Shown: in pieces, positions 18,348 through 36,006 of the stretch
Layout: each line of letters begins with the position of its first letter
How positions within the stretch are numbered: position 1 is the stretch's first letter
Assembly (NCBI GenBank): GCA_964583985.1
Contig: CAZOYD010000027.1
Span: 1-41,970 of the forward strand
Direction: 5' to 3'
Source: an uncultured archaeon
GTDB lineage: Archaea > Asgardarchaeota > Lokiarchaeia > Sigyniarchaeales > SOKP01
DNA length: 41,970 nucleotides
Program-made: the position numbers and the translations under genes
Notes under the pieces: generated by a model
The model's input: the letters and a program-made list of their open reading frames with translations, nothing else
Database searches by the model: none
What the model was told of the DNA's origin: nothing

Positions 18348-19382
18348 GTGAAATTAAAAATGAATGAATTAATAGAACGCGCTGGTAAAATGATTGTTGA
18401 AACTTGCTCCCAATTAAAGCCTAACGAGAAAGCTACAATAATAACAGATAAAGAGACCTTCGAAATAGGCTCGATGATAAGAAAGTATTCAGAAGCAATT
18501 TCAACCAAAATCTCTTTCCACATTATTGAAGATTATGGTAAGAGACCTTTAGATTTTATACCTAAAGAGATCGAAAAGGATGTAAAAAATAGTGACGTTA
18601 CGTATTATGCAGCACAATCAAAACAGGGAGAACTTCAAAAATTTAGGGGTCCAATTGTCAATTTGGCTACTCTTTCAGGAAGAGAGATACACATGCCAAA
18701 TATTGATACAACCATAATGCAAACTGGAATGCAAGCAGATTATTATAAAATAGCAGGATTAACCTATTTAATAATGGGTATCGCATGTAAGTCAAAAACT
18801 GCTCAGGTAACTACACCTAATGGTACCGATTTACATGTAGTTATTTCACCTAAGTTAAAGTGGGTTCCAGATACGGGCTTGCTATGGTATAAGGGGATTT
18901 GGGGTAATCTACCGGCAGGGGAAGTATATACCTGTCCTGAGTTAATTGAAGGAATAATGGTTGTAGATGGTACTTTGGGAGATTTCTTTAATCAGAAATA
19001 TGGTAACTTAGGAAAAACACCGGTAACCATTCCAATCTACAATTCAAGGGCGCAAATAGAAAAGATTACCTGTGAAAATGAAGAGTTACTCATCGATTTT
19101 AAAAATTATTTATATAACGACGAAAATGCTAACAGAGTAGGTGAATTCGCTTGTGGAACAAATATAGCTCTAAAAAGGTTAATATCTAATCTATTACAGG
19201 ACGAAAAATTTCCAGGAGTACATATTGCATTTGGAAGTCCGTTTCCAAATAAAACTGGTGCAGATTGGAATTCTATTGGCCATGTGGACGGAATTATGAA
19301 AGAATGTTCTCTATGGTTTGATGATAAATTGATCCTTGATCGTGGAAAGTTTGTTGAAAACGAGATTCTAAGCATATATTAG
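18348..19382 (+). CDS. Aminopeptidase, M29 (AmpT/AmpS)-like metallopeptidase
   Basis: GNLPAGEVY, VGEFACGTN, LQDEKFPGVHIAFG, HVD. Confidence 0.88.
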   Translation: MKLKMNELIERAGKMIVETCSQLKPNEKATIITDKETFEIGSMIRKYSEAISTKISFHIIEDYGKRPLDFIPKEIEKDVKNSDVTYYAAQSKQGELQKFRGPIVNLATLSGREIHMPNIDTTIMQTGMQADYYKIAGLTYLIMGIACKSKTAQVTTPNGTDLHVVISPKLKWVPDTGLLWYKGIWGNLPAGEVYTCPELIEGIMVVDGTLGDFFNQKYGNLGKTPVTIPIYNSRAQIEKITCENEELLIDFKNYLYNDENANRVGEFACGTNIALKRLISNLLQDEKFPGVHIAFGSPFPNKTGADWNSIGHVDGIMKECSLWFDDKLILDRGKFVENEILSIY

Positions 19383-19491: not shown

Positions 19492-19584
19492 GGCCCTTGA
19501 CGGTTGGGGTGGTCTCTGACGCTGGGCTTCAAACCCAGTTATCCTGCGGAGGGATAGCGGTTCGATTCCGCTCGAGGGCCGCCA
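19492..19584 (+). tRNA. selC: tRNA-Sec (anticodon UCA), 9/4 fold, CCA encoded
   Basis: 9-bp acceptor GGCCCTTGA/TCGAGGGCC, G73, CCA; 7-bp D stem GTTGGGG/CTCTGAC with TGGT loop; 6-bp anticodon stem GCTGGG/CCCAGT with loop CTTCAAA; long variable arm; 4-bp T stem GCGG/CCGC. Confidence 0.97.
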
Positions 19585-23065: not shown

Positions 23066-23962
23066 ATGCCAATTGGTAGTTTTGTGATTATTTTACCATT
23101 AGATAAGGACTATAAAGTGTTAGGTTATTACTTCAAAGATGGTAATTCTATTTTTGAGGTAACGAGTGATATTTTCCTTCGATTGAACTTGGATCATTCT
23201 AAAGATGAATATAACCTCCTTTCTTTTAAAGAAATTAAACTTTTTACATACTTGCATAAATTAAAAGGGAAGCTTGCAAGGAAGGCTTCCACTATAATTG
23301 TCGGTTTACTTTTACACGAAAATGAAGAACCTGAAAAATTTCGTATTTCTTTAAAAGAAACAGCCGAAGCCGTCGAGATTTTGGGACTGAATGTCTTAGA
23401 TATACCCCAAGACAAATTTGAACGTTTATTAAAAGACATATATTTAGAACATTTAGAGCCACTTACAGATATATTAAAACCAGAAGCTTTGAAAGATAGT
23501 ATAATTAATATTACTAAATTTATGTTAAGTGGAGGAAAAAAAGAAAGAGCAATAGCTCAAGATCTATTAAAACGCGTAGAAAATGGAGATCACAAAAAAA
23601 TCTCGGAAAATTATGAAAGTGCAGAAAAAGCAATGGAATCTTTAGAATACGAAAAAGCAGCGAAATTATTGAGTAAAGCATCCCAAATAGCTGAAGAGTT
23701 ATATGTTTTAGATATTGCTGAAGTATTAAAAGAAAAATCAAGCTTTTCATTAAAAATCCCCGATTTATCAAAAAAACGGAACAAAATTGTACAAGATGCT
23801 AGGAATAGCCTTCGAAACGAAGATTTTCATTCTGCATATGTATCCTATAAAAAAGCAAGTGAATTATCAAAAAAATTAATAGATTTTGAAAAGGAAGAGG
23901 AATACCGACTCAAGTCAAAGGCACTTGAAGAATTCTACAAAATTGATCAGAAAAAAAAATAG
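23066..23962 (+). CDS. Protein with a possible longin-like N-terminal domain and TPR-like C-terminal helices
   Basis: N-terminal beta-beta-alpha-beta-beta-beta-alpha-alpha pattern (MPIGSFVII...IIVGLLLHENEEPEKFR); AEKAMESLEYEKAAKLLSKA and ARNSLRNEDFHSAYVSYKKA helical repeats. Confidence 0.55.
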   Translation: MPIGSFVIILPLDKDYKVLGYYFKDGNSIFEVTSDIFLRLNLDHSKDEYNLLSFKEIKLFTYLHKLKGKLARKASTIIVGLLLHENEEPEKFRISLKETAEAVEILGLNVLDIPQDKFERLLKDIYLEHLEPLTDILKPEALKDSIINITKFMLSGGKKERAIAQDLLKRVENGDHKKISENYESAEKAMESLEYEKAAKLLSKASQIAEELYVLDIAEVLKEKSSFSLKIPDLSKKRNKIVQDARNSLRNEDFHSAYVSYKKASELSKKLIDFEKEEEYRLKSKALEEFYKIDQKKK

Positions 23963-24079
23963 AAATCAAGTTGGCCAATTTTAGATTTAAATTGAATGTA
24001 CAAAGAAGTGAAATTTAATTTTTTAATCTGTTTTAATAACTATAACTAATAATATTTTCGTCATATATCCTCTAAGGAA

Positions 24080-30161: not shown

Positions 30162-30233
30162 TTAATCCGTAATTTTATGGATTCCATTTTTTTTTGCAAC
30201 GGTAGCCTAGCCTGGTAAGACGCTGGATTGGAA

Positions 30234-30262
30234 TCTTTGGAATAAACTCCAGATAACCATAC
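30234..30262 (+). other. tRNA-Ser anticodon-loop intron (37/38), 29 nt, relaxed BHB
   Basis: UGG/CCA central pairing, 3' bulge ACA, internal UGGA/UCCA stem; removal restores a 7-nt loop. Confidence 0.8.
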
Positions 30263-30294
30263 ATCCAGTGTGAGTGATCACTCGGGGGTTCGAA

Positions 30295-30327
30295 GGAACT
30301 TAAATAATAAAGTTAAGTTGACGAAAA
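30295..30327 (+). other. tRNA-Ser T-loop intron (59/60), 33 nt
   Basis: Helix UUCG/CGAA, bulges AAG and AAU, stem AACUUAA/UUAAGUU; removal restores TTCGAAT. Confidence 0.9.
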
Positions 30328-30422
30328 TCCCTCCCGTTGCGTTTATGTTTATAATTCTGATAAAATATAAGGCAAAATCTTTAAAATTTTGAATTACTAT
30401 CATTAATCAAAATTAATGATAA

Positions 30423-35362: not shown

Positions 35363-35954
35363 TTACATCTCCCCCGTAATTCTATCATCATAATCTCCAT
35401 TTTCTATGCGTTGTTGAATCTTTCGAGGATCTTCCCCCTCTACTGTAACCCCTATTGATAAAGCAGTTCCTAACACTGATTTAATAGCTGCTTTATATGT
35501 TCGTTCTAAAAAAATCTCTTTTTTTGCTTCTACGACATTAATGATTTGATCAAGATTAATATCTCCAATCTTGCTATCTGAGCAAGAAGCACTCCCCTTT
35601 TGAGCTCCAATCTCCTTTAATAGTAATGATGCTGTCGAAGGAGTCTCTATGAAAATTTCAAATTTTTTAGTCTCAGGATCACATACAATTTTAACTGGTA
35701 CAGTTAACCCCTTGAATATCATTGTCTTTTCATTGACTGTGTCGACCACATCCTTAATATATGCACCTAAATCCGAAATGATATTAGATTATGCCAGTTG
35801 GGCCGACGGCAGGACCTTTACCTTTTATTGTTAAAACGATTTGTTTTAGGAAATAGGCGGCCCGCCTGATGCTTTTGGGGTTTTAATCGAGTAGATTAAT
35901 AACGTTCCCACCAGTCACGAGGGCCTTAATGGTTATTTTTCCTTTTTCACTCAC
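35363..35954 (-). CDS. rpl11: Ribosomal protein uL11, spliced from four exons: 35954-35905, 35873-35853, 35817-35789, 35760-35363 (165 aa)
   Basis: GTG start at 35954 with GGTGA RBS. Joined exons read [46 protein letters not shown]..., in frame with the ORF-track C-terminus (GLTVPVKI, TPSTASLL, VLGTALSIGVTVEG); first gene of L11-L1-L10-L12. Confidence 0.9.
35761..35788 (-). other. rpl11 intron 3 (28 nt), BHB-type
   Basis: TCTAATATCATTTCGGATTTAGGTGCAT; helix GCAU/GUGC, bulges AAU and AUA, intron helices CUAA/UUAG and AUC/GAU. Confidence 0.85.
35818..35852 (-). other. rpl11 intron 2 (35 nt), BHB-type
   Basis: TTCCTAAAACAAATCGTTTTAACAATAAAAGGTAA; helix GCCU/AGGU, bulges AUU and AAA, exon-exon helix GGGCC/GGUCC, internal stem UAAAAC/GUUUUA. 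Confidence 0.85.
35874..35904 (-). other. rpl11 intron 1 (31 nt), BHB-type
   Basis: CGTTATTAATCTACTCGATTAAAACCCCAAA; helix UGGG/CCCA, bulges AAC and AAA, intron helices GUU/AAC and UUAAUC/GAUUAA; exon-exon helix imperfect. Confidence 0.85.
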
Positions 35955-36006
35955 ATATTCTCACCGTATTCTTTTTATTATATAGATTTATTATCAAAAT
36001 ATATCT

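Follow-up and report, generated by a model that had tools for sequence, protein, structure and literature searches.

Three candidate bulge-helix-bulge introns in the single-copy uL11 ribosomal protein gene of an Asgard archaeon

Results

A uL11 gene in four pieces within a ribosomal protein operon

ORF calling and Pfam searches across the window (by which we mean the whole stretch of DNA that was analysed, 41,970 nucleotides) placed an archaeal uL11-uL1-uL10-P1 operon on the minus strand, in which the uL11 gene lies in four pieces, split by three inserts of 31, 35 and 28 nt. As called by ORF finding, uL11 is a 128-aa fragment (35749-35363, minus strand, start GTG 35749) with a complete C-terminal RNA-binding domain (PF00298, 60.9 bits) and a sub-threshold match to the N-domain (PF03946, 17.3 bits, profile positions 31-58 only). 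Joining the exons (35954-35905 + 35873-35853 + 35817-35789 + 35760-35363) gives a 165-aa uL11, the first 72 residues of which match the Pfam Ribosomal_L11_N profile (PF03946) over positions 1-58 of 58 with 69.7 bits (E 1.7e-19), relative to a cut-off of 32.9 bits. The start of this joined gene is a GTG at 35954 on the minus strand, and relatives have ATG at the same alignment column. The features of the locus, 5' to 3' along the gene, are as follows.

35961..35965, minus strand: putative Shine-Dalgarno-like GGTGA, 6 nt 5' of the start codon; ACGGTGA is kept in the closest relatives L026, L027 and L028
35905..35954, minus strand: exon 1, 50 nt; GTG start, codons 1-16 and 2 nt of codon 17
35874..35904, minus strand: predicted intron 1, 31 nt, HBh' relaxed BHB as the local minimum free energy (MFE) fold; 8 carriers; not in the closest relative
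35853..35873, minus strand: exon 2, 21-nt micro-exon (A-S-G-G-P-P-I); synonymous changes only relative to L027
35818..35852, minus strand: predicted intron 2, 35 nt, hBH relaxed BHB as the local MFE fold; 6 carriers
35789..35817, minus strand: exon 3, 29-nt micro-exon; GGUCC strand of BHB 2 at its 5' end, GCAU-AA of BHB 3 at its 3' end
35761..35788, minus strand: predicted intron 3, 28 nt, HBh' relaxed BHB as the local MFE fold; 11 carriers; not in the closest relative
35363..35760, minus strand: exon 4; remaining N-domain, RNA-binding C-domain (PF00298) and stop codon

These insert coordinates, lengths and minus-strand blocks, read from the sequence, are those that an earlier note on this DNA had claimed. 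The 3' end of exon 1, UGGG-AA, forms the 5' strand of central helix 1 plus two bulge bases, while exon 2 provides GGGCC for the outer helix of BHB 2 and GCCU for its central helix. The predicted exon-exon junctions are GGTGGGAA|AGCATCAGG, CCGCCTAT|AGGTCCTG and GGCATAA|ATATTAAGG. By-eye counting gave a G+C content of 67% and 62% for the two micro-exons, against 33% for the genome, and all three intron sites sit within the most G+C-rich 60 nt of uL11.

Each of the three inserts brings a stop into the reading frame of the exon before it, and the added length totals 94 nt, so that read-through is impossible. The source genome is a metagenome-assembled genome (MAG) of 138 contigs, with 100% completeness and 5.25% contamination, and uL11 is single-copy in it; the intact second rpl11 copy that the earlier note had named as evidence against splicing is missing from this assembly scored as 100% complete. 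Three familiar classes of insertion were considered and rejected for these inserts. At 28-35 nt they compare with a core of hundreds of nt for group I and group II self-splicing introns, and Rfam at its gathering threshold reported tRNA-Sec only in the window; an intein would have to be in frame and open, whereas the inserts are frame-shifting (31, 35 and 28 nt) and stop-bearing; and they are without the terminal repeats or target duplication of a MITE, beyond the symmetry of the BHB itself.

Predicted folds of the inserts

When each insert was folded with RNAfold together with 8-12 nt of flank, the local MFE structures contained the central helices UGGG/CCCA, GCCU/AGGU and GCAU/GUGC with 3-nt bulges, as the earlier note had stated. 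For intron 1 the prediction is HBh', with helix UGGG/CCCA, bulges AAC and AAA, and an inner hairpin that stacks directly on this helix; intron 3 has the same HBh' layout, with helix GCAU/GUGC, bulges AAU and AUA and again a stacked inner hairpin. In the predicted fold of intron 2 (hBH), an exon-exon outer helix GGGCC/GGUCC is followed by bulge AAA, helix GCCU/AGGU and bulge AUU, and then by an inner hairpin with a linker of 8 nt. All three inserts therefore have a 4-bp central helix, a 3-nt bulge on each strand and at least one adjoining helix (h or h').

The stability z-scores were modest (-1.46, -1.70 and -0.77 for introns 1, 2 and 3), and in longer contexts the predicted equilibrium probability of the central helix was 0.54-1.0 for intron 1, 0.02-0.88 for intron 2 and 0.00-0.27 for intron 3; for contexts of 240-280 nt the values were 0.02-0.6 for helix 2 and 0.004-0.27 for helix 3. 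With helices 2 and 3 often minor in these longer contexts, folding would need to be local, co-transcriptional or protein-assisted. The three BHB motifs occupy non-overlapping segments and so are able to coexist, in a structure that is 5.9 kcal/mol above the MFE of the 241-nt context.

The earlier note had also suggested scanning the genome for BHB insertions in other genes, and here the motif did no better than its decoys. A whole-genome scan for the BHB motif with ORF rescue gave 112,712 matches against 107,541 for parallel-pairing decoys, with no enrichment, and shifted-cut decoys gave approximately 87,000 matches per variant, equal at every threshold. This absence of genome-wide enrichment is attributed to the weakness of the motif and to adjacent genes, which swamp the signal. 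Since the motif is low in information, and the fold is weak evidence alone, the claim is carried by the comparative evidence.

Presence, absence and conservation of the inserts in related uL11 genes

Related uL11 genes were collected by searching 40 relatives with PF00298 and GTDB genomes with a back-translated query, giving a comparison set of 36 distinct uL11 5' regions from the same clade (Promethearchaeota and similar). The expected clean presence or absence was seen at exactly three sites among these 36 genes, with 8 carriers at site 1, 6 at site 2 and 11 at site 3; at least one insert was found in 19 of the 36, and all three in the source genome only. In loci from other families of the same order, uL11 was uninterrupted (14 of 14). 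In a 25-kb pairwise alignment with the closest relative (86% DNA identity), the three uL11 inserts were the only clean insertions inside protein genes, the other indels (near 23952-23994, 24065 and 31586) being intergenic. Elsewhere in this alignment, at window positions 18639-18939, segments of 97 and 180 nt have no counterpart in the closest relative and have poorly aligned flanks, a difference of gene content and no intron.

In a comparative test, cutting after the second base of the bulge restored the sequence of the intronless relatives at all three sites. The junction codon at site 1 is AG|U (Ser) in intronless genes and AA|A (Lys) in the source genome, that at site 2 is AU|A (Ile), as in intronless relatives, and that at site 3 is A|AC or A|AU (Asn), again as in intronless relatives. 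The claim that a cut at this position gives a full 165-aa uL11 is thus borne out, both by the joined exons and by the regeneration of the codons of intronless relatives.

An assembly or binning artefact, or a mixed population with an intronless functional copy elsewhere, would account for inserts in a MAG of 138 contigs with 5.25% contamination, and intronless alleles do occur in sister species. We consider this extremely improbable, because homologous inserts occupy the same sites in many MAGs assembled independently in different studies (a near-identical intron 2 is present in the independent MAG L026) and the assembly is without a second uL11 copy.

The pairing of the inserts is conserved through compensatory changes. 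At sites 1, 2 and 3, respectively, 100%, 95.8% and 100% of the central-helix cells in the alignment are paired, with one pair at site 1 varying AU:4, UG:3, UA:1 among its 8 carriers and one pair at site 2 varying UA:3, GU:2, UG:1 among its 6. For the 6 carriers at site 2 the outer helix is 100% paired and the hairpin 97.2% paired, and the observed covariation was reached in 0 of 500 shuffles; for the 11 carriers at site 3 the inner helix is 83% paired, with three doubly changed pairs. Across the inner helices, double changes occur at five pairs. Moving the partner by 1-3 columns as a slide control dropped pairing to 18-80%. At site 1 the interiors of the introns diverge widely between clades and the motif is kept. 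The exon codons that pair with the introns are also fixed among carriers and vary among non-carriers: GGG in 8/8 against 6/27 (Fisher p 1e-4), CCG in 6/6 against 7/29 (p 1e-3) and GGC in 11/11 against 5/24 (p 1e-5), these p values being uncorrected, including for phylogeny.

Ribosomes might instead skip the inserts by programmed bypassing or frameshifting on an uncut RNA. There is a hairpin in each gap, as there is in the bypass gap of phage T4 gene 60. Such a mechanism would, however, need three consecutive hops of 31, 35 and 28 nt, matched take-off and landing codons flank none of the three gaps, and the features that are conserved are those of the BHB motif rather than those of a bypass signal; we give this explanation hardly any credence.

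Another reading holds that the N-domain is decaying, with the cell making a 128-aa C-domain uL11 from the GTG at 35749 and the upstream pieces being relics. ORF finders and public annotation do give exactly this 128-aa product, and the uL11 C-domain alone binds rRNA, L11 being dispensable in some bacteria. The upstream coding sequence is nevertheless under strong purifying selection: over the first 39 uL11 codons, read from the alignment with the intronless relative L027, there are 16 synonymous changes and 1 non-synonymous change, which argues that the micro-exons are translated in the joined frame. In the aligned sequences the N-terminal stretch is conserved apart from a residue marked x and one Ala/Ser change, and the start codon and the Shine-Dalgarno-like motif are kept. 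Nor would relics hold frame-exact junctions, and the helices of the inserts covary. Decay of the N-domain is accordingly highly improbable.

Splicing enzymes and other interrupted genes in the genome

The genome encodes two EndA paralogues, in the regions of G000:C4:51753-51977 and G000:C3:71349-71597, and RtcB (557 bits). The 207-aa EndA paralogue has as its nearest match the Aeropyrum pernix chain 3p1z_B, taken here to be the catalytic EndA subunit of that organism, and it keeps the Tyr/His/Lys positions and a KPR loop that is presumably the crenarchaeal L1 loop. The 205-aa paralogue has Phe and Ser where the M. jannaschii enzyme has what we take to be the catalytic Tyr and His, and these substitutions point to a structural subunit. 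By sequence, then, the two paralogues would form an EndA of the heterotetramer type, (alpha-beta)2, with catalytic and structural subunits, encoded along with RtcB. Asgard archaea have been described as having an (alpha-beta)2 EndA with the L1 loop, a type that cleaves relaxed HBh' and hBH motifs (PMC5829648); the title of Yoshinari 2006, as given in the reference list of that paper, ties archaeal pre-mRNA splicing to a hetero-oligomeric endonuclease.

The inserts might be removed from the RNA by some other nuclease and ligase, or by a self-cleaving activity, with the BHB-like fold incidental; the low information of the motif and the minor share of helices 2 and 3 in longer contexts would both allow for this. 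We judge it very unlikely, as the covariation is concentrated in the 4-bp helix between the two 3-nt bulges and, at all three sites in 25 carrier introns, the junction lies precisely behind the second base of the bulge. In the window, Rfam moreover detects neither a ribozyme nor a group I/II intron, for which inserts of 28-35 nt would be too small.

The splicing machinery appears to be heavily used in this genome, in which transfer RNA genes are also interrupted. A tRNA-Ser(GGA) gene in the window (30195-30342, plus strand) has at least two introns, one of 29 nt in the anticodon loop and one of 33 nt in the T-loop (30293-30325); the T-loop insert is not in the closest relative, and ARAGORN and Rfam detect the gene only after it is removed. 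About 60 nt downstream of this tRNA-Ser gene lies a 23-nt perfect hairpin, ATCATTAAT...ATTAATGAT (window 30399-30421), which is missing from the closest relative. The window also contains a tRNA-Sec gene (19492-19584, plus strand; ARAGORN, and Rfam RF01852 with 59 bits), indicating that selenocysteine is used by this Asgard archaeon. For the whole genome, scored as 100% complete, ARAGORN found 21 tRNA genes only, of which 12 contain an intron, which suggests that many tRNA genes are too interrupted for detection. These ARAGORN counts fit the heavily interrupted Asgard tRNA genes reported in a preprint (bioRxiv 10.64898/2026.10.13.758758, October 2026). A 'tRNA-Ala' called by ARAGORN in permissive mode at 35818-35953 was discarded, as it lies on another contig and the match in coordinates is a coincidence.

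Among protein genes, the sole RNase HII gene (L089, G000:C1:127200-127829, minus strand) contains, within the catalytic DEAGR|GP motif, a hairpin insert of 30 nt that includes a TAA stop; the putative central helix of this insert would consist of G-U pairs alone. Split alignments supported by paralogues, from a tblastn search of 2,712 ORFs against the genome, were rejected as introns, since the 7 clusters proved to be gene fissions in which a stop, a ribosome-binding site and an ATG are present. Large ORFs on C5 and C21 align across adjacent gene pairs at G000:C1:16930-17070, C1:20730-20850, C11:6010-6190, C13:46590-46780 and C60:17580-17750. The boundaries of these pairs show a stop, GGAGG and ATG, and the downstream genes begin with a CCNWCSYAG-type motif; the pairs are gene fusions or fissions and contain no introns.

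Gain and loss of the proposed uL11 introns

A quick tree was built from uL11 (C-terminal part), uL1 and uL10, the latter two being uninterrupted in all loci that contain them. The minimum numbers of changes on this tree, on which gain and loss are not separable, were 6, 5 and 9 for sites 1, 2 and 3. Well-supported sister pairs with different intron states were L026/L027, L018/L024, L019/L021, L033/L037 and L028/L045, and the uL11 introns appear to be gained or lost quickly between sister species. Introns at the same site are mostly alignable across clades, which favours either a history of old gains and many precise losses or recombinational exchange. The uL11 introns are probably without a function of their own, and we infer that they persist where G+C-rich Gly/Pro codons, in an A+T-rich genome, can provide a stable helix strand. 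Whether mRNA splicing by the tRNA enzymes is routine in this Promethearchaeota genus, including in essential genes with several introns and micro-exons, and with turnover at G+C-rich 'proto-splice' sites, is in our view an evenly balanced question.

Effects on public annotation

Public protein collections carry the marks of these inserts, with 51 of the best-scoring 120 uL11 clusters being shorter than 162 aa. The truncated or aberrant lengths among these best 120 clusters were 128, 134-146, 152 and 161 aa. The 128-aa calls begin after site 3, the 146- and 152-aa calls begin inside the site-2 intron, and the 161-aa calls, with a GTG within GGTGGG as their start, run through the site-1 intron (e.g. 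MGALLINSIITPN). Several of these entries are named 50S ribosomal protein L11 by NCBI. If the message is spliced as proposed, damaged sequences are consequently present in the marker-gene sets, phylogenomic alignments and completeness estimates used for these archaea.

A full-length protein approximately 100% identical to the spliced uL11 was not found in a collection of 5.8 billion proteins. Metagenome contigs, scanned for exact matches to junction 1 and to site 3 in its spliced and unspliced forms, yielded 0 matches, and as the unspliced form was equally missing, these scans are uninformative.

Discussion

We consider it very probable, from comparative sequence analysis, that the three inserts are genuine BHB introns taken out of the sole uL11 pre-mRNA by EndA and RtcB. 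In the proposed mechanism each insert, with its flanking exon bases, would fold after transcription into a relaxed BHB, of the hBH type in intron 2 and of the HBh' type in the other two; EndA, as an (alpha-beta)2 heterotetramer, would cut after the second base of each 3-nt bulge; and RtcB would ligate the exons of 50 nt, 21 nt and 29 nt and the remainder, so that the full 165-aa uL11 would be translatable only once the exons are joined. Excision at the level of RNA, the part played by EndA and RtcB and any order of splicing are what we infer from the genome, and they are offered as a model.

If the uL11 message is indeed spliced three times, archaeal mRNA splicing would be no one-gene curiosity and would reach the core of the translation apparatus in an Asgard lineage. 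The earlier note had placed this organism in the archaeal lineage closest to eukaryotes; it is a Loki-type Asgard archaeon (Promethearchaeota), and that branch of the Asgard archaea need not be the closest one. With only 50 nt between the start codon and the first intron, translation of an unspliced message would give a 23-residue peptide. If spliced as proposed, the uL11 gene would be a natural system for studying how a cell without a nucleus prevents the translation of unspliced mRNAs; a conflict of introns with translation has been proposed as a driver of the origin of the nucleus. If mRNA splicing proves routine in these archaea, they would represent prokaryotes with split genes, fast intron turnover and translation kept off unspliced messages without a nucleus.

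The mechanism itself is known; what would be new is a multi-intron ribosomal-protein mRNA with micro-exons, and rapid intron turnover, in Asgard archaea. The full-text literature searched held no paper on BHB introns in Asgard protein genes, in agreement with the earlier note, which knew of no prior description; papers outside the searched literature are possible.

The closest precedent is the BHB intron in the pre-mRNA of cbf5, the pseudouridine synthase gene, of Crenarchaeota, reportedly described by Watanabe in 2002 and Yoshinari in 2006. Like the uL11 inserts, this is a short BHB-type intron within coding sequence, with a link to hetero-oligomeric EndA, with lineage-specific gain and loss, and with gene prediction confused by the intron. 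The cbf5 case is one intron in one gene in Desulfurococcales and Sulfolobales, whereas uL11 has three introns within 144 nt in an Asgard archaeon, and differs further in being a ribosomal-protein gene, in its micro-exons of 21 and 29 nt and in turnover that extends even to sister species. The naming of cbf5 as the main known archaeal mRNA intron agrees with the literature, in which it is the only confirmed BHB intron of a coding sequence (PMC2738675, Yokobori 2009; PMC7714728, 2020).

In Haloferax volcanii, HVO_1309 has a BHB intron in its 5' UTR (PMC7714728). As is proposed here for uL11, the substrate of EndA is an mRNA, from which the intron is freed in circular form; unlike in uL11, this intron is confined to the untranslated leader, and the coding sequence needs no splicing to be complete.

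In eukaryotes, the HAC1/XBP1 mRNAs are spliced by Ire1 and a tRNA ligase such as RtcB. This resembles the mechanism proposed for uL11 in being protein-only, non-spliceosomal cutting and ligation at paired stem-loops, with a ligase common to tRNA splicing and with a change of reading frame upon splicing, and differs from it in using Ire1 rather than EndA/Sen, in its single regulated intron and in its role in stress signalling.

The multi-intron, non-canonical tRNA genes of Thermoproteales and Asgard archaea resemble uL11 in their HBh' and hBH motifs, in the enzymes predicted to act on them, in having several introns in one gene and in repeated gain where a BHB can form, and a tRNA-Ser gene with two introns lies in the same window as uL11. 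The preprint on Asgard tRNA genes (bioRxiv 10.64898/2026.10.13.758758) does not mention mRNA. What would set uL11 apart from tRNA introns is that the substrate is an mRNA, in which the exon halves of the helices are codons, constrained both by protein sequence and by pairing.
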